Shown piece by piece: positions 45,543-64,000 of a DNA stretch of 64,000 bases. The notes below the pieces were generated by a model that ran no database searches, had not been told where the DNA came from, and saw nothing but the letters and a program-made list of their open reading frames with translations. Position numbers and translations under genes: made by a program. This stretch comes from Candidatus Scatosoma sp. (lineage in GTDB: Bacteria > Bacillota > Clostridia > Christensenellales > Borkfalkiaceae), in assembly GCA_045594025.1 (NCBI GenBank), contig JAZNXS010000030.1:3230-67229 (forward strand), written 5' to 3'. The number at the start of each line of letters is the position of its first letter. Positions within the stretch are counted from its first letter, which is position 1.

Positions 45543-45570
45543 AAAAGCACCCAGCAGGGTGCTTTTTTTG
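45543..45570 (+). terminator. Rho-independent terminator after the PII-like genes
   Basis: GCACCC agca GGGTGC followed by TTTTTTT. Confidence 0.8.
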
Positions 45571-49085: not shown

Positions 49086-52031
49086 TTATAATTGATCGAT
49101 GATATGTTTAAACTCAAAATTATTCTCTATCATTCTTTCAAACAGCTCGATACCGATTTGCGTCTTCATTTCGTTTTTCTTGCTCTTCCACTGAGACGCT
49201 TCTTCCTGTGTGAACGTGTATTTTGCGGAAGCATAATACTCGAAGAAGGTATATACCGTCTGCAAAACATTGACGTCGTGCGCAATTTTCGCATTGATAT
49301 TGTTGCTGTTATAGTATCCCGTCCAAACGTTATAATAATACGTGAGGTTGGCAATATTCGGATACGTGCCTTTTAAGAAGAGCTTTCTCATAAAATGATT
49401 TTGCTCGGCAGGATCCATATCCTCAGAGACCATTTTCGCCCCCTGGCTTCTGTTTTGAACCTGCGCCATGTCATGAATCAACAGCATATCCAAAATTTCT
49501 TTTTTGTTATAGCCTTCCGCCGCCATTTCTTCCGGCAGGAAGAGCATCGCCAAGAGCCAAGAGCTAAACATGTGCTCTGAAACGCTTTCCGGTACGTCTA
49601 CCGTATCAATCCATTGCGTCCGTTTAATCTGCCTTAAAACGTTGCACTGATTGTACAGCATCGGGCCGATGTCAAGCCCTCCGTCAGCAAGGAAACGTAA
49701 GAAGTCCTCTTTGACGCTCTCGAAATAATAAAGAATTTTAGAGGATACGATATTGTGCGGCTTTTGTTGATACGTTTCCAAATAACGCACTGCATTTTTG
49801 ACGTAGGTTTGAATGTCAAAGTTAGGCTTTATCACCTTACTTTGAATACGGGTTTGCAATAAGGTAAGCAACGTAACTAGATTGTTCTCTACAAACTTAT
49901 CCCTATTGTTCTCCAACGACGCTTCCACTCTGGCCTCCAACGCCTTGATTGCGCCCTCGCCAAAATTCGGGTTCGTGTCCAGATAGTAGGTGTTATGCGC
50001 CCCCATTTGGTACTGTTCGCTGTAATATTCCACCGTTGCGCCACGGTTTACGGCGTTTGCAATATCGTTGGTGATGACAATACACAAGTATTCGTCCATC
50101 ATGTTGGCTTGGCCGTGGAATAACATACCCGTACAAACCGCGCGGAACAATAAATGCTTATCTAAATTATCCTGCGTGTTCTTGTTGTTGGTTTTCACCG
50201 CAGACTTTAACTTTGTAAACTCCCCTGTTAAGAAGGAAAGGGCATAGTTGACCATCTCCTTGCTGTAATTGATTCTACCAAGCCAAAAGGCTGCGTTCGC
50301 TTTTTGACGAACGTCAAACACCTCATATTTATCGTCGATAAAGGCGATGAATTTCTCCTGCAATTCATAGTTATCTTGTAACATTGCCACTACAAACTGG
50401 TTTGCCGTCGCCGTCAGCATAACTTTGAAGAAATCATAGTTATTCAACGTCTTATAATTTTCGATTTGATAAACGAAATAATACGCAATCAAATACCCTA
50501 AGTAAGTATGATGTTTGTTGGGGAAAGACCACACTTTGCCATCGTAAGCATTATCGATACAGCCGTCACCGCCGCTAAATAAATATTCAAACAGCGTTTT
50601 GGATACCTGCAATAGTCTTTCTTCTTCCAAATATTCCGTCAAAACGAACTTTTCATACATGTCGCTGAGGCAAATATCCGTATCGTAGCTGGTGGCAATT
50701 TCCCTTGCAATGAGCCTGATTAAGAATATATCCACAGAGGGATATTTTAACTTCTTTAACAGGTCGTACACCGTCTCGCAAGCCGCGCTTTCCCCATACA
50801 TTTTTAACACGCTGCGAATCACTTTCGTGATTTTTTGTTTTTGTTCGATAGGGATAGAATGGAATAATAATAAATATCCGCCGCGCATTTCCCCCGCGAT
50901 AGGAATTACCTTCTTTAAGCGTATGCGGTTTTGAATCAAACCCGTATCGATCGCCACTGCTCTATTGTAGCGTTCGAAGGGCTTAAACAGCATATAAATG
51001 ATTTTTTCGGGACTCAGACGGGTAACAACGTACTCTCTTACCCCTTCCAGCAAAAGAACGGGTTTTACTTCTTTGTTTTGCTTAACGTACTGGAAAAATT
51101 CCGCCGTGTCCTCCGAAATCAATTCCTGCATTTCGGATTCCGCATCGTTATAATCAAACTTTTCATAATACCCGATGGACAGGTATATCGGTAAAACGTC
51201 GCTTTCGTTTTTCTCGAAGCGATCCAGCATTTTAAAAAACGCCAGCTGTAATAACATGTTTTTCGCGCTGCCGGGCAACCCCTGCACACGGACGATATTA
51301 TGCTCTTTTGCCGATAAAGCGTCTACCAATAAACGGACGTAATCCGTATCTTGCGAAAGCAGTTCATCCTTGTTATAACCACTCACCGTTTCCGAGAATA
51401 ACACGTTGGCTTCTTTTACAAAGCTATTATACGACTCCTCGCCGTCTACGCGGTCGAATAAGCTGTACGCAAATTTCGAGGAAAGCATCTTCAGTTTCCA
51501 TACGATTGCCTTTCTCGTTAGATTATCTTCTATAACCGCCTTTGCCTTGACGGAAGCCTCTTCTGTCTTTTTTATAATGGGTCTGGGAATGCTCCGCAGC
51601 GTATCTGCGCGCGGAATTTCTTTGCCCTTTGCACCCAGAATGCTCATAATGGTCGAGCGCAGTTTTTCCAGCCCTTCTGCAAAATCGTGATACGCGTCAA
51701 TCCAGTGCTTTCTTCCTAAGTAATACAAAAAGCCGTTGGAAAATTTCACGTTTTCGATTTTGAACGCGATGATGGGTTTTTCGCAATCGAACGCGATTGC
51801 CAGCTCGTTGCTGACGTGGTTAGATTCGTTGGTGTCTTCGGAAGCAACCAACACGAACGCATCGCAATTTTTAATTCCTTCCACAATTTCTGTAGGATAA
51901 TCCTTTCCGGGAGAAATACTGTACGGCGCCATCCAACACCCGATTCCGCTTCTTTGCAGAAATTGATATACGGCGTCTGCGCTTTCTATGTTGTTAGAAG
52001 TATAGCTGATAAAAATCGAATTTGCGTTCAT
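49086..52031 (-). CDS. TIR domain - degenerate P-loop (STAND/NACHT-like) - HD phosphohydrolase fusion protein
   Basis: The start is ATG 52031, with an SD AGGAG 9 nt upstream. GTG 52064 is the long-ORF alternative. TIR-like N-terminus: SIFISY, GCWMAP, CDAFVLVASEDTNESNHVSNELAIA. Central region: VRVQGLPGSAKN and KPVLLLEGVRE. C-terminal HD motif: ESVSEHMFSSWLLA...LLIHDMAQV. Confidence 0.7.
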   Translation of the reverse strand: MNANSIFISYTSNNIESADAVYQFLQRSGIGCWMAPYSISPGKDYPTEIVEGIKNCDAFVLVASEDTNESNHVSNELAIAFDCEKPIIAFKIENVKFSNGFLYYLGRKHWIDAYHDFAEGLEKLRSTIMSILGAKGKEIPRADTLRSIPRPIIKKTEEASVKAKAVIEDNLTRKAIVWKLKMLSSKFAYSLFDRVDGEESYNSFVKEANVLFSETVSGYNKDELLSQDTDYVRLLVDALSAKEHNIVRVQGLPGSAKNMLLQLAFFKMLDRFEKNESDVLPIYLSIGYYEKFDYNDAESEMQELISEDTAEFFQYVKQNKEVKPVLLLEGVREYVVTRLSPEKIIYMLFKPFERYNRAVAIDTGLIQNRIRLKKVIPIAGEMRGGYLLLFHSIPIEQKQKITKVIRSVLKMYGESAACETVYDLLKKLKYPSVDIFLIRLIAREIATSYDTDICLSDMYEKFVLTEYLEEERLLQVSKTLFEYLFSGGDGCIDNAYDGKVWSFPNKHHTYLGYLIAYYFVYQIENYKTLNNYDFFKVMLTATANQFVVAMLQDNYELQEKFIAFIDDKYEVFDVRQKANAAFWLGRINYSKEMVNYALSFLTGEFTKLKSAVKTNNKNTQDNLDKHLLFRAVCTGMLFHGQANMMDEYLCIVITNDIANAVNRGATVEYYSEQYQMGAHNTYYLDTNPNFGEGAIKALEARVEASLENNRDKFVENNLVTLLTLLQTRIQSKVIKPNFDIQTYVKNAVRYLETYQQKPHNIVSSKILYYFESVKEDFLRFLADGGLDIGPMLYNQCNVLRQIKRTQWIDTVDVPESVSEHMFSSWLLAMLFLPEEMAAEGYNKKEILDMLLIHDMAQVQNRSQGAKMVSEDMDPAEQNHFMRKLFLKGTYPNIANLTYYYNVWTGYYNSNNINAKIAHDVNVLQTVYTFFEYYASAKYTFTQEEASQWKSKKNEMKTQIGIELFERMIENNFEFKHIIDQL

Positions 52032-52067
52032 CTCATTTTTCTCCTGTGTAACCTGTCTTGTCACGCT

Positions 52068-53375
52068 TTAAAACCAAACGGTATACATAACGTACCCGGC
52101 GTTAAAAATAAACTCTTCGCCGAAAAAAGCCTCTTCCAAATCGTCGTAATATTCATCCACCCAAGCCAAAACTTCTTTTGCCGTTTCGTCGTTGGGATCT
52201 TCTTTCAGCATCAAGCCGAAATCGTTGGGGATAAAAGCGAACCAAGACTCGAATAACAAGCGCTTCGCTTCATAATCCATACCCGTCGAGTTGATCCCGC
52301 AACGCTCTAAGCGGATATCCTTCGCACCAAGCTTTTTCATGTAGCTGTAAATTTGTCTGCCCGATTTACGGAATCCGCCCAGCTTATTAAACTTGTAGAA
52401 AGACTGAAATTCTTTAAACAGATTGTTTTCATCAGGGTAAGCGAACACCAACGTGTCATCCACGTCGCGAATGAACGCTACTGCATTCGGGTTCATATAT
52501 TTCTTGATTTTTTTCAAAACTTTGAACGGAGATTCCAAATCCAAAATTGTCATAGTAAGATTGAGGAAATCAAAGCCCTTAATACCGCGCTCTTGCATGA
52601 CCCTCGGTAATACTTCGTCAATTTTATCCTTGGTTAAATCCATCAGATAAAACCGCATGTTGTCATGCTCTTCACAGAGTTTATTTCCCTCTTCAATCAT
52701 CTGTTGATCATAGGAGAAATATACGGCTTTGCCCACTTCCTTACGATCGAATCTTCTTATGGTAGAATCTGCGCTAAGCACATTAAAATCCAAAACGGCT
52801 ACGTTCTCGCGGCCCAAAAGCAGCTTATCGTAATACGGCTTTTCATAGCTATACAACAGCTCTTCTTCGTTGTGGATTCTTTCACATTCTACTGCGTCTT
52901 CGGGCATGTAGTATTGATTAACCTTTCTTTCCACTTCCACCTTTTCATTCTTCTCGTAGCGCTCTGTTTTCTCAATACCTAAAATAGGCACCAGCTGTTC
53001 GTAAAGGTGGTAAATACTCTGTTCCAAAGGCTCGCTTACGGCGTCGATCCAATGCAGACGCTTTACGTAATATTCCATGGCTTTGGAAAGAATTCCTTCG
53101 TCCACTTTGAACGGGATAATGGTGATTTCACCGTTTAAAATACGCTTGTACGCCATTTCCACTTCATTTAATACGTGCGGAGATTCCGACGAGTTGTGAT
53201 TGAGAATCAAAACGAAAACTTTGCATTTTTCAATCGCTTCCACGATAGACGTGGCGTAGTCGCCGTAAACGTCCCGAGGCGCATACCAACAACGCACCCC
53301 TCTCGTCTCTAATACAGAACAGATATTATCCGCGATCGATTTCGATTCGTGCTCGTAACTGATGAAAACGTCCAT
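52068..53375 (-). CDS. TIR domain - methyltransferase-fold-like fusion protein
   Basis: 435 aa with an SD AGGGAGA. TIR-like aa 1-135: VFISYEH, VRCWYAPRD, CKVFVLILNHNSSESPHVLNEVEMA. The C-terminal half resembles a class I methyltransferase fold with a degenerate SAM loop: VAVLDFNVLSADS and FDFLNLTMTILDLESPFKVLKKIKKYMNPNAVAFI. Confidence 0.65.
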   Translation of the reverse strand: MDVFISYEHESKSIADNICSVLETRGVRCWYAPRDVYGDYATSIVEAIEKCKVFVLILNHNSSESPHVLNEVEMAYKRILNGEITIIPFKVDEGILSKAMEYYVKRLHWIDAVSEPLEQSIYHLYEQLVPILGIEKTERYEKNEKVEVERKVNQYYMPEDAVECERIHNEEELLYSYEKPYYDKLLLGRENVAVLDFNVLSADSTIRRFDRKEVGKAVYFSYDQQMIEEGNKLCEEHDNMRFYLMDLTKDKIDEVLPRVMQERGIKGFDFLNLTMTILDLESPFKVLKKIKKYMNPNAVAFIRDVDDTLVFAYPDENNLFKEFQSFYKFNKLGGFRKSGRQIYSYMKKLGAKDIRLERCGINSTGMDYEAKRLLFESWFAFIPNDFGLMLKEDPNDETAKEVLAWVDEYYDDLEEAFFGEEFIFNAGYVMYTVWF

Positions 53376-54535: not shown

Positions 54536-54659
54536 ACTACTCTCCTTTTTTACATCTTAGCCCTATGCGCGAAGCGCATTATACGTATATTTTAACTGAA
54601 ATGACCGAAAAAGTCAATAGTTTCATGATTATAAGTATAGTTTCACGGAAAATCTAATG

Positions 54660-54688
54660 TAAAAAGCACCCACAAAGGGTGCTTTTTG
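54660..54688 (-). terminator. Bidirectional rho-independent terminator after the ASCH gene
   Basis: AAAAAGCACCC acaa AGGGTGCTTTTT. Confidence 0.75.
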
Positions 54689-54690
54689 CT

Positions 54691-54701
54691 TTGGAGCAGG
54701 T
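54691..54701 (-). repeat. 11-nt direct repeat of the tRNA-Gly 3' end (att-like scar)
   Basis: ttggagcaggt at 54691-54701 is identical to 55779-55789, which covers the CCA end and the 3' acceptor stem of the tRNA. Confidence 0.5.
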
Positions 54702-54786: not shown

Positions 54787-55131
54787 TTATTTAAGCCTGA
54801 TTTCAATTCCGACAACACCATAGCATTTTTGCTTTTCCAACGAATAATATGCTTCCATATCTTTGGCAGAGGATGTAGCAATTTCTTCGGGTAAGTAACC
54901 ACATTTATCTAATGGTAATATTTGATACAGTTCTTCAAAATTTGCAAAAATATGTAGTTTCTCAACCACGCAAGAAATTGTAGAATTCGCATCTTTGGTG
55001 TTTGTAAAAATCAATGTGTCACCGATTGAAATTAATTGCCTTTTTTCATCAAACAACCGTAGCTCTATGGTCTTATTACCGTTTGCTATCATTGAAAACG
55101 GTTGTGGGTGAAGCTTCATATAATGTGTCAT
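54787..55131 (-). CDS. ASCH domain protein
   Basis: 114 aa. The N-terminal pattern MKLHPQPFSMIANGNKTIELRLFDEKRQLISIGDTLIF is typical of ASCH. Confidence 0.7.
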   Translation of the reverse strand: MTHYMKLHPQPFSMIANGNKTIELRLFDEKRQLISIGDTLIFTNTKDANSTISCVVEKLHIFANFEELYQILPLDKCGYLPEEIATSSAKDMEAYYSLEKQKCYGVVGIEIRLK

Positions 55132-55133
55132 TG

Positions 55134-55481
55134 TTATTTAGATTCCTTTTTCAGCGTTTTACAACTAGCAATTAGCATTCGTCTAATTCGACCGCAAAGA
55201 TTGCGATAGGTTTTAAAAGTTTCTTCGTCTATGGCGTTAGTGTTAAATAACAGTTTGAGCCAACCTTCGGTTTCGTTACATTCTTTGAGTGCTATTTCAA
55301 ATTTCGATATCATATCTGATTTGCTTTGCCCGTAATTTGCTTCGCGTATATTTGCATAAATACTGCTTGAACTTTTCCGTATTTGGAATATAGTGTTTGA
55401 AGAAGCTTTTATATTCTGACAAAGCAATTCGATTTCAGACGCAAGTTGCTCGGAGTATATCAACAAGTAATTCTTTGGCAT
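55134..55481 (-). CDS. Four-helix-bundle protein (23S rRNA intervening-sequence protein family-like)
   Basis: 115 aa. IRKSSSSIYANIREANYGQSKSDMISKFEIALKECNETEGWLKLL matches the family pattern by eye. Confidence 0.65.
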   Translation of the reverse strand: MPKNYLLIYSEQLASEIELLCQNIKASSNTIFQIRKSSSSIYANIREANYGQSKSDMISKFEIALKECNETEGWLKLLFNTNAIDEETFKTYRNLCGRIRRMLIASCKTLKKESK

Positions 55482-62084: not shown

Positions 62085-64000
62085 TTATTCTTCGGAAGAC
62101 TCCTCTGTTTGAGGCGCTTCTGCTTCCTCATCAGCATATACGTCGATAGACTTATCATCCGTCGTGTCAAGCTTCACACGCTTGTGTGCATTGACGATAG
62201 CGTCTGCTCTTGCACGTTCTGCTTTCTTCTTGTTTACAATGACAACGGGGATTACGATTGCCGCCGCAACCACAATCACGCCTGCTGCCACGATCAAGCA
62301 AATCTGCCAAACTTCCAAGCCGGTAGCCGCGACTTCGGTTTCTTCTGCGAAGGGAAGGGAATCCACCCATTCCTGTCTAATCGCTTCCTTGTCTGCAGCC
62401 GTCTGTGCGCCGATAAGCGTGATCAAATCCTTTTCATATACGTGCGCGTAGCTGTCTGCCGCTGCTACGAATTTATTGAATTCTTCATACCATGCAAGGT
62501 CTTTATCGTTGTTCTTCGCTTTATATTCTTCGTTTAACGCCTTCACATCTTCCAACGCATAGTCAGCCGCATTGCCCGTACCTGTACGGAAATAGTATTT
62601 CGCCGCTTTCTTCAAATCTGCGTTTTCATCCGCCAAGTTGTTTTCAATCAACTCGTAAGCCGCTTCGTAAGCTTCATTATTCGCTTCGATCGTATCCGTC
62701 GCCAAAGACGTTGCATAAATATAATTATAGGAGTTGGTTACCGCAGCCTGCGCATTTGCATAGAGCAATACTTGATTGCCTGCTTCTACGGTAATGATTT
62801 CGGGAAGATACCAGCTGCTGGGATCTACGATATCCACGTATGCAAGAACGCGAGGTCTGTATTCTTCATTCGCCTCATCAAGGTTCAGCAAAGGCTCGTA
62901 CTTGTCTTTCGCGCCATTCCACTGAATGCGAATTACGTTGAAGCCCGTCGTTGGCGCAGCATTTACAGGATTCGTACCTGCCGCATAGTAGTAAAGGTAA
63001 TCGCCGTCAACTTTCCAAAGCTTCGCACCGGAGGGAGCTTGGCAAAGTTCGATTTCTTCGCCCTTACCCGTCGTTTCATCCACGTCCACTCTTACAATCT
63101 TAGAAGAGCTGTTTACGTAAATATATTGATGCTGACCGCCGTTTTCAAGGAATAATGCCGTGCTGGACGCGTTCGTCGTACTCCAAGCCACTGCAACGGC
63201 CTTTTCATTTGCCGCAACCGTGTTATTCGTCTCAAATACGCTTTCTGCTACGTAGTACAATCTAGGATCCGTCGTGTCGCCCGTTCTCGTAAAGTAGATA
63301 CCATCGTTATCATGACGGGTAATCGTATACGTATAACCTTTCAAGGTATTAGCGGAAGTGCCTACTAAGGAACCGTCTTCCTTCAATTCGTTATAACGCT
63401 TATCTTTATCTTCTTTATTGCTGTCCACGCCGATACCGTCAACCACCAAAGTACCAAGGTTTACGTAAGGATACGTCGTGTAATCGTCGAACACGTACTT
63501 TGCTTCGTACTTCGTGCCGTTATTTTGCGCAGTCTTCTTCGCTTCTGCGTTCTTGTCTTCCATCCAATCCTTATCGAAATCGTAGGTCTTGTAGTCAACG
63601 TACTTTTCCTGCGCTTTGTCATAGGTTTTTACGGTATAGGAAGCCTCGCCTGCATTTACGCTTACCGTATTTGCCGCGTTTACACAGTAAATCTGGTTAT
63701 ACGACGCCGCAGACGAGAAATCAGTGTCCACTTTGTTGGTAAAGCTCATCGTATAATATACGTTTGCGTTGGTGGGATCTTCCTGGTCGAAGAAATACGA
63801 GCCCGCGCCCTCAACAAGTATCGTCGTTGTCTTATCTTTTGTATTGTAGGATTTCAACGTGCCGCTTTCTACGTAGAGACAGTATACCACACCGTTATCC
63901 GCTTGCACGAAACGATAGTTCGTAATCGAGCTGGAAAGCGCACGGAAATAGTACCCTTTCATAACCTCGGAACCGTCAAGCCTTGCACACTTGAAGTCGA
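62085..64000 (-). CDS. Large secreted/surface-type protein with a C-terminal TM anchor, 5'-truncated by the window edge
   Basis: The frame stays open from 63962 to the window end. The body is beta-rich and Y/N/T-rich. The C-terminal TM segment VWQICLIVAAGVIVVAAAIVIPVVIV is followed by a charged tail. Confidence 0.6.
   Translation of the reverse strand, partial: DFKCARLDGSEVMKGYYFRALSSSITNYRFVQADNGVVYCLYVESGTLKSYNTKDKTTTILVEGAGSYFFDQEDPTNANVYYTMSFTNKVDTDFSSAASYNQIYCVNAANTVSVNAGEASYTVKTYDKAQEKYVDYKTYDFDKDWMEDKNAEAKKTAQNNGTKYEAKYVFDDYTTYPYVNLGTLVVDGIGVDSNKEDKDKRYNELKEDGSLVGTSANTLKGYTYTITRHDNDGIYFTRTGDTTDPRLYYVAESVFETNNTVAANEKAVAVAWSTTNASSTALFLENGGQHQYIYVNSSSKIVRVDVDETTGKGEEIELCQAPSGAKLWKVDGDYLYYYAAGTNPVNAAPTTGFNVIRIQWNGAKDKYEPLLNLDEANEEYRPRVLAYVDIVDPSSWYLPEIITVEAGNQVLLYANAQAAVTNSYNYIYATSLATDTIEANNEAYEAAYELIENNLADENADLKKAAKYYFRTGTGNAADYALEDVKALNEEYKAKNNDKDLAWYEEFNKFVAAADSYAHVYEKDLITLIGAQTAADKEAIRQEWVDSLPFAEETEVAATGLEVWQICLIVAAGVIVVAAAIVIPVVIVNKKKAERARADAIVNAHKRVKLDTTDDKSIDVYADEEAEAPQTEESSEE

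Follow-up and report, generated by a model that had tools for sequence, protein, structure and literature searches.

By computational means, we analysed a window of 64,000 nucleotides from Candidatus Scatosoma sp. (assembly GCA_045594025.1, contig JAZNXS010000030.1, positions 3,230 to 67,229 of the forward strand; all positions below are those of the window), and in particular an open reading frame (ORF) of 435 amino acids (aa) with an ATG start codon, in which a TIR domain is followed by a domain with the class I methyltransferase fold. The ORF is located on the minus strand, while a reading of the same interval on the plus strand was ruled out by stop codons throughout its translation. It is the third of six genes arranged in series (Table 1): two GNAT acetyltransferase genes (GNATa and GNATb, which overlap by 11 nt), the TIR/pseudo-methyltransferase gene (40 bp downstream of GNATb), an inserted gene encoding a 992-aa protein with its own TIR domain, a gene for a membrane protein designated c2, and an M20 amidohydrolase gene. 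As a promoter-like site precedes GNATa and the first convincing terminator follows the M20 gene, these six genes are probably transcribed as a single unit, with the M20 gene probably included as the last gene before the terminator. Our tentative reading is that the TIR/pseudo-methyltransferase protein is the TIR (signal-making) subunit of an undescribed Thoeris-like cassette of four genes, i.e. GNATa, GNATb, TIR/pseudo-methyltransferase and c2.

Table 1. Features of the TIR/pseudo-methyltransferase locus, with their positions in the window and the basis of each assignment.
Feature	Position	Strand	Basis
TIR/pseudo-methyltransferase gene, 435 aa	52068..53375	-	ORF, Pfam TIR_2, AlphaFold2, Foldseek
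TIR domain, aa 1-132	52980..53375	-	Pfam; family profile vs Cat1 and TIR-STING
Glu71 codon (catalytic-type), inside HVLNEVEM	53163-53165	-	codon position verified
class I methyltransferase-like domain, aa 161-435, predicted catalytically dead	52071..52895	-	fold and clade-specific losses
degenerate motif I VLDFNVLSADS, aa 194-204, in place of VLDxGxxxG	52764..52796	-	sequence
GNAT acetyltransferase 'b' (GNATb), 207 aa	53416..54039	-	Pfam Acetyltransf_1 E 5.8e-11
GNAT acetyltransferase 'a' (GNATa), 168 aa	54029..54535	-	Pfam E 5.9e-8; PDB 3ey5 E 7e-17
membrane partner 'c2', 694 aa	46950..49034	-	AlphaFold2, Foldseek, hhalign
inserted gene, 992 aa, TIR + P-loop-like/helical region + HD_3	49086..52064	-	Pfam TIR_2 E 8e-20, HD_3 E 2.4e-14
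M20 amidohydrolase, 414 aa	45676..46920	-	Pfam and NCBIfam
promoter-like site TTGACT-17-TAAAAT, 5' of GNATa	54589..54617	-	consensus scan alone
terminator-like hairpin, 10-bp stem then T run, 3' of M20 gene	45543..45566	-	consensus scan alone

The N-terminal part of the protein matches Pfam TIR_2 over aa 3-115 (E 1.5e-18, 67.8 bits with a cutoff of 28), and the family profile matched the NADase TIR domains of Cat1 (E 3.7e-7) and TIR-STING (E 5.6e-6). Glu71 of the target (in HVLNEVE) aligns with the helix-C Glu of Cat1 (WDELEQ) and of TIR-STING, and is kept in 65/65 non-redundant relatives with the same combination of TIR and methyltransferase domains (TIR-MT proteins, see below). With this catalytic-type Glu retained, the TIR domain is predicted to cleave NAD.

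The original prediction, made from the letters of the window, had proposed the order of TIR domain, linker and class I methyltransferase fold, and the structural comparisons agree with this. While a Pfam search with the single sequence gave a sub-threshold match to Methyltransf_23 (19.3 bits with a cutoff of 27), and NCBIfam gave no meaningful match for the target, the 992-aa protein or c2, the AlphaFold2 model of the target (based on an alignment of 31 relatives) had a mean predicted local distance difference test (pLDDT) score of 89. For aa 161-435 the means of 10-residue blocks were mostly above 90 (range 77-98), and the alternation of strands and helices follows the class I methyltransferase order; the only disordered part of the model is the linker at aa 138-144 (pLDDT below 50). 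Foldseek returned 927 PDB matches at E ≤ 1e-3, with all top matches being S-adenosylmethionine (SAM) methyltransferases, which confirms a seven-stranded, Rossmann-like methyltransferase fold. The best match was 3mgg from Methanosarcina mazei (E 3e-13, template-modelling score 0.68 on the target), with further matches to LahSB (6uak), RebM, TleD, phosphoethanolamine methyltransferases, JHAMT, GtmA/TmtA, HNMT and the non-methylating SpnF (4pne). The family profile also found 3mgg in the PDB (E 1.3e-10), with the strand-4/5 region and the GRQIY helix shared in sequence, whereas the single-sequence search of the PDB was marginal.

To place the protein in its family, a word-seeded search was used. 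It gave 282 homologues, and among the 120 listed almost every one covered the full query at a length of about 435 aa. A scan of one genome per species yielded 80 loci (labelled L001 onward), from which ORF calling and clustering left 65 non-redundant TIR-MT proteins; gene calls in the related loci are crude ORF selections with priority given to hidden Markov model (HMM) matches. An exhaustive HMMER search with aa 150-435 gave 408 cluster representatives for the methyltransferase half, and together with the 282 homologues this places the fusion far beyond chance. The literature searched, including a full-text search, contained no published description of a TIR-methyltransferase fusion, in line with the original prediction. 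The nearest relatives of the target are found in Candidatus Scatosoma metagenome-assembled genomes (MAGs; 88% and 86% identity), and other carriers are gut Christensenellales, other Clostridia, Bacilli (Acholeplasma-like), Olsenella and one Methanomethylophilaceae archaeon. A single contig (L026, 3264-9314) carries in tandem a 761-aa protein with RyR and SLOG domains, a TIR-MT gene with intact SAM loop, GNATa, GNATb and a TIR-MT gene with degenerate loop. At least five other MAGs have two TIR-MT paralogues at separate loci (L019/L064, L022/L045, L023/L035, L025/L038 and L044/L068), and four of these five pair an intact with a degenerate copy.

The VLDFNVLSADS sequence of the target occupies the motif I position in the loop between strand 1 and helix A, where intact relatives have VLD[LIV]G[SCA]xxG, and the proposed degeneration of the SAM loop is therefore correct; it is also not a one-off, since the loop is degenerate in all 26 members of a clade to which the window protein belongs (26/65). 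In the neighbour-joining tree these 26 proteins are monophyletic and nested within the radiation of the 39/65 TIR-MT proteins with an intact SAM motif. The motif I glycines G198 and G202 are present in 100% and 97% of the 39 intact relatives, and in 0% of the 26 degenerate ones. The acid at the end of strand 2, which binds the SAM ribose, is Glu or Asp in 39/39 intact relatives vs Ser, Cys, Ala or Thr in 26/26 degenerate proteins (Ser in the target, VYFSY), and position 279 is His in 39/39 intact proteins (strand 4 reading LLH[LIM]) vs Asp in 26/26 degenerate ones, while Asn310 of 92% of the intact proteins is replaced by Val in 81% of the degenerate proteins. On the basis of these motifs, H279D and N310V, the methyltransferase domain of the target is predicted to be catalytically dead. 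The idea of a pseudo-enzyme thus stands for the clade of 26, in which loop, strand-2 acid and His279 are lost, but it cannot be extended to the fusion as such, as 39/65 TIR-MT proteins and all stand-alone relatives have an intact SAM motif, the 39 being putative methyltransferases judged by their sequence. By its own terms, the original prediction is in part contradicted by such homologues with an intact motif.

An alternative would be that the domain is still an active methyltransferase which binds SAM via a non-canonical loop. A few class I methyltransferase-fold enzymes tolerate an unusual motif I, the fold is intact and confidently modelled, and both the Leu-Asp pair of strand 1 and Asp246 (MDL; assigned to the adenine side by position only, and conserved in at least 90% of the family) are retained. 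We nevertheless consider this very unlikely, given that bulky or polar residues stand in for both motif I glycines, that none of the 26 proteins retains the strand-2 acid, that His279 and Asn310 are replaced, and that these losses occur in concert and together with the acquisition of the GNATs described below. Degenerate cofactor motifs are also what would be expected if the methyltransferase-like half were a decaying relic without a function of its own, but this is hardly credible for a domain which is full length and without frameshifts in 26/26 clade members. The mean pairwise identity within the degenerate clade is 0.49 for the methyltransferase half vs 0.66 for the TIR domain (0.40 vs 0.48, a similar ratio, in the intact clade), the residues E170, E178, D279 and A351 are new and fixed at 100% in the clade, the pocket motifs shared with the intact proteins are invariant, and the AlphaFold2 block scores are mostly above 90. 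The methyltransferase half is still under constraint, and the clade is therefore better seen as a remodelled pseudo-enzyme than as a case of decay.

The part of the domain that stays conserved is the putative substrate pocket, with the motifs DxDD (304-307), YPD (313-315) and SGxRxSGR (333-340). The residues common to both clades, and partly to the stand-alone relatives, are E163, R166, L195-D196, D304/D306/D307, P314-D315, G334, R336, R340 and G427, and we infer that these form a small-molecule pocket with two arginines. The role as nucleotide or NAD-derivative sensor suggested by the original prediction is plausible, but the obligate GNAT partners suggest the holding of a substrate as an alternative, and the pseudo-methyltransferase may thus serve either as ligand sensor or as substrate holder for the GNATs. 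The target shares its fold with 3mgg and with the small-molecule or peptide-carboxyl methyltransferases LahSB, RebM, TleD, JHAMT and GtmA/TmtA, but differs from these in lacking the GxGxG motif, the ribose-binding acid and His279, and in its fusion to a TIR domain. The [4+2] cyclase SpnF likewise represents a reuse of the class I methyltransferase fold beyond methyl transfer, although SpnF is a biosynthetic enzyme that still binds SAM or S-adenosylhomocysteine, whereas the SAM site of the target is dismantled.

The loss of the SAM site goes together with the presence of acetyltransferase genes: a GNAT gene is located directly upstream on the same strand of 26/26 degenerate vs 1/39 intact TIR-MT genes (Fisher p = 3e-17, a value which overstates independence since the clade is monophyletic and the association is effectively one event), and one further intact TIR-MT gene overlaps its GNAT gene by 54 bp. 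In the degenerate loci another GNAT often lies before the upstream one, or a GNAT-GNAT fusion takes its place, with GNATa and GNATb being a single 367-aa protein in some relatives, and the degenerate clade with its GNATs by now extends over two classes and about 40% identity. The acetyl-CoA motif is kept in the two GNATs of the window (RGLGIG in GNATb, NKGLGG in GNATa). In an Anaeroplasmatales MAG (L033, 9314-11902) c2 carries a fused C-terminal GNAT domain, a physical link between GNAT and membrane protein.

Outside of TIR proteins, the methyltransferase family is found as stand-alone proteins of about 285 aa and as fusions of methyltransferase, GNAT and zinc ribbon of about 470-530 aa, and the GxGxG motif is intact in all of these. 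The fusions indicate that the partnership of methyltransferase and GNAT exists independently of the TIR domain. These non-TIR relatives belong to MatE / methyltransferase(-GNAT) / HAMP-SpoIIE operons close to a STAS protein, and a conserved STAS / MatE / methyltransferase(-GNAT) / HAMP-SpoIIE(-HATPase_c_2) operon was seen in L099-L103 (e.g. L102, 3963-9494). In L102 a gene for an 860-aa protein with AAA and RyR domains is located just 5' of this operon.

With respect to the genomic organisation, blastn showed that the GNATa-GNATb-TIR/pseudo-methyltransferase block (54536-52068) and the c2 block (49034 to about 47000) are collinear with three related loci (L007, L014 and L015). In these three loci both blocks abut, and the sequence beyond them is unrelated to the window; the collinear blocks and differing flanks show that the four genes move as a cassette. 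In the window genome, and only there, the cassette is split exactly by an insert of 3,033 bp with the gene for the 992-aa protein. The latter contains the P-loop-like sequence GLPGSAKN and an HD_3 domain of the HDDC2/YfbR phosphohydrolase type (PDB match to HDDC2 at E 2e-4), its TIR domain is 36% identical to that of the target, and it is a singleton in the locus set; it resembles an NLR-like TIR defence gene in its own right, nested within the operon.

The membrane protein c2 starts with transmembrane helices (aa 1-135), followed by a pair of RCK/Rossmann-like domains (aa ~137-460) and a helical C-terminus that resembles a divergent RyR (R12) domain (aa ~465-685); its AlphaFold2 model has a pLDDT of 84 and a predicted template-modelling score of 0.79. 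Foldseek matched the cytoplasmic core to RCK gating rings, with GsuK as best match (E 9e-6), next to CASTOR, DMI1, TrkA, MthK and Slo, and with tandem RCK/Rossmann domains combined with a membrane domain c2 has the layout of RCK gating-ring proteins. Homologues of c2 are rare, with only 89 among 5.8 billion clusters, none of which has a Pfam domain or a name. The RyR-like assignment comes from the proteins of a sister family, c10, which have RCK-like domains and the K+-filter-like motif MGYGDTPP: in hhalign the C-termini of c2 and c10 align with a probability of 97.3 (E 2.3e-11), and the core alone with a probability of 92.6 (E 4.5e-7), while the aligned region of c10 passes the Pfam RyR cutoff (34.2 and 29.4 bits with a cutoff of 27.4). 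In the C-terminus of c2, conservation is seen for E573-H574-x-R576-W577, where H574 is close to invariant, for H616, which does not vary, and for a YDY motif. According to two preprints from 2026, RyR (R12-type) domains of phages bind 2'cADPR, 3'cADPR and cyclic ADP-ribose (cADPR), in one case also cleaving them, and contact the ligand via H-x-x-W, a His some 25 residues on and an Asp 17 further (PMC13232231; 10.64898/2026.06.04.730250). When mapped by motif only, c10 has this spacing apart from an insertion of five residues.

The c10 proteins adjoin proteins in which the same TIR subfamily (44-50% identical) is fused to a STAND NTPase and TPR repeats. Such TIR-STAND-TPR proteins (about 790 aa) are found in Oscillospiraceae, Lachnospiraceae and Ruminococcus beside ~480-aa proteins that combine transmembrane helices, MGYGDTPP, RCK-like domains and a Pfam-positive RyR domain (L076, L077, L083, L089, L090 and L091, at ~6.3-10.4 kb in each), and this would be a pair of TIR protein and RyR channel for which we found no description. 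Other neighbours include proteins with RyR and SLOG domains (c68, matching Pfam RyR at E 5e-11), a YpsA-type SLOG protein, TIR-LRR proteins and double-TIR proteins.

Taken together, we favour the four-gene Thoeris-like cassette including its mechanism, outlined at the end, although we rate it as somewhat short of an even chance. Like the Thoeris systems (types I-XI), the locus has a TIR protein with catalytic Glu, here beside a variable, putative effector with a domain that may bind ADP-ribose (ADPR)-derived signals; further similarities are that effectors are often membrane-spanning and swapped between loci, and that a locus has multiple TIR genes. It differs from Thoeris in the fusion of the TIR domain to a methyltransferase fold, in the GNATs being obligatory in the degenerate clade, and in a putative effector with transmembrane, RCK and RyR-like domains. 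The accessible parts of the Thoeris survey of Yirmiya et al. 2025 (10.64898/2025.12.03.692087) describe no such fusion for Thoeris TIRs, do not mention methyltransferase, GNAT or RyR, and do not have this effector among those named; its tables, with Table S1 available in part, contained no TIR with the signature peptides of this subfamily. Methyltransferase, RyR and GNAT are also not mentioned in the 2022 Viruses paper of Burroughs and Aravind. With regard to c2, the RCK-gated K+ channels and transporter rings GsuK, MthK, TrkA and CASTOR/DMI1 share the tandem RCK ring on transmembrane helices, and the sister family c10 the GYGD filter-like motif, whereas c2 has an additional RyR-like domain and is linked to TIR genes. 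The C-terminus of c2 is homologous to Pfam RyR domains, with the H-x-x-W pair and His that contact 2'cADPR or 3'cADPR in the phage proteins RyDEP and RyR Tad (PMC13232231; 10.64898/2026.06.04.730250), but those are small soluble anti-defence sponges or glycosidases of phages, while the c2 domain is host-encoded and located on a membrane/RCK module, and would thus be a receptor.

In addition to the phylogenetic dependence noted for the GNATs, several observations weigh against this assignment. A K+ selectivity filter (TxGYG) was absent from c2 on reading of its sequence, and c2 gave no Pfam match, including RyR PF02026 (12 members scanned), no PDB match by HMM with either the full length or the C-terminus, and no useful fold match in the viral BFVD; as these direct searches yielded nothing, the RyR assignment rests on the profile-profile alignment via c10. 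The mapping of ligand contacts onto c2 is by motif only, and while H-x-x-W and His are retained, the ligand Asp is not alignable, a pattern that would fit binding better than hydrolysis. The GNAT of the methyltransferase-GNAT fusions was considered as the same subfamily as the GNATs in the window, but the similarity is distant (E 2e-4 to 0.9). PADLOC gave weak TIR-level matches only (ThsB E 1e-4, SAVED_TIR E 1e-7), with no effector and no system match, and the cassette is flanked in the window by housekeeping and sporulation genes rather than by a defence island. Finally, c2 or its relative c73 lies at most two genes away from TIR-MT in 14/65 loci (from both clades, at 28-88% identity and in either gene order), but not in the other 51/65, and many TIR-MT genes stand alone, so that the TIR protein could act by itself.

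This last point supports an alternative in which the target is a self-contained abortive-infection NADase: the methyltransferase-like domain would sense a phage product or metabolite and oligomerise the TIR domain, NAD+ depletion would kill the cell, and the GNATs and c2 would act independently or serve as no more than regulators. TIR effectors that consist of a single protein with a fused sensor domain are already known, the sister architectures of the same TIR subfamily end in sensor-type modules (STAND-TPR or MORN repeats), and in L001-3 the TIR-MT gene is followed by a convergent AraC gene. We see this as rather unlikely, because the retention of GNATs in 26/26 loci and the synteny of the cassette with c2 are difficult to reconcile with unrelated genes, the pocket of the methyltransferase has stayed invariant across deep divergence, whereas sensors of phage proteins evolve fast, and c2-type proteins recur beside TIR genes with a range of architectures. 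Of two more c2 homologues inspected, one has a fragment of a TIR gene after it and the other a 190-aa gene.

The genomic setting bears on another alternative, a non-immune second-messenger circuit in which an NAD derivative, made by the TIR and tailored by transferases, would regulate an RCK/RyR-type membrane transporter, for ion homeostasis or for control of stress or sporulation in gut Clostridia. The housekeeping and sporulation genes around the locus and the lack of a PADLOC system match would be consistent with this, as would the stand-alone methyltransferase relatives in MatE / STAS / SpoIIE partner-switching operons, whose role is in regulation instead of defence, and the fact that RCK domains normally gate ion transport. 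In our view such a circuit is quite unlikely, as the cassette is patchy and moves across unrelated contexts and phyla, including one archaeon, some genomes have two paralogues, a TIR/P-loop/HD gene is inserted within the window operon, and several loci have defence neighbours (Cas9, DUF4062-STAND, a ResIII/Eco57I pair and TIR-LRR).

Recognised defence genes beside some TIR-MT genes include Cas9, a 1,516-aa DUF4062-STAND NTPase and a ResIII/Eco57I restriction-type pair (L034, 3757-6966; L057, 5154-9701; L004, 2259-8448). FtsK, CdaA, Cas9, Metallophos and esterase genes downstream of TIR-MT in other loci were judged to be unrelated neighbours or separate defence genes, and a phage origin was rejected, with one TIR-level match for the target and none for c2. 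The M20 amidohydrolase was dropped as part of the cassette core, as it is missing from the syntenic block in close relatives. It is of the N-acyl-amino-acid deacylase type, with homologues from the same cluster in L004 (11751-12971), L074 (6700-7881) and L078 (6666-7868); in L004-6 and L032 the homologue is located 4 bp after a gene for a protein with four transmembrane helices, which follows an intact TIR-MT gene, and in L074 and L078 it is directly upstream of TIR-MORN genes. This recurrence near TIR genes may reflect an accessory role or chance. Directly upstream of the cassette in the window are genes for an ASCH-domain protein and a '23S rRNA intervening sequence protein' (four-helix bundle; 54787-55481, minus strand), followed by a strong hairpin (~54660-54700), and a 625-aa ORF (62085-63962, minus strand) without Pfam match at E ≤ 1e-3 is surrounded by housekeeping and sporulation genes.

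In the mechanism proposed for the four-gene cassette, a trigger (infection or other) would lead the TIR domain to convert NAD+ into an ADPR-derived molecule. The pseudo-methyltransferase, having lost methyl transfer, would keep the ancestral small-molecule pocket as ligand-binding module of the TIR protein, and would either gate the TIR domain or hold the acceptor or product for acetylation by the two GNATs, with acetylation standing in for the methylation done by the intact relatives. The RyR-like domain of c2 would then read the product, and its RCK-type ring would open or disrupt the membrane and so bring the cell or the phage to a halt. A wider, speculative version to which we give only a small chance is that TIR signals are chemically tailored throughout the family, with intact methyltransferases methylating the ADPR-derived product or acceptor and dead ones holding the molecule for GNAT acetylation, giving a new class of modified ADPR messengers which gate an RCK/RyR membrane channel.

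If such tailored messengers do gate the channel, this would be a prokaryotic counterpart of the action of cADPR on ryanodine receptors in animals. The four-gene reading, if right, would add a TIR architecture (TIR with methyltransferase fold) and an effector type (membrane RCK ring with RyR-like sensor), neither of which is mentioned in the accessible parts of the 2025 Thoeris survey. The TIR-MT family is mainly found in uncultured gut Clostridia and Bacilli, which may be why screens based on E. coli and relatives of Bacillus have missed it. With intact enzymes and GNAT-accompanied pseudo-enzymes in one family, it would provide a natural experiment on whether TIR-derived signals are modified, and a host-encoded RyR-type domain downstream of a TIR protein would make the proposed evolutionary link between cADPR-type signals and ryanodine-receptor domains directly testable in bacteria.

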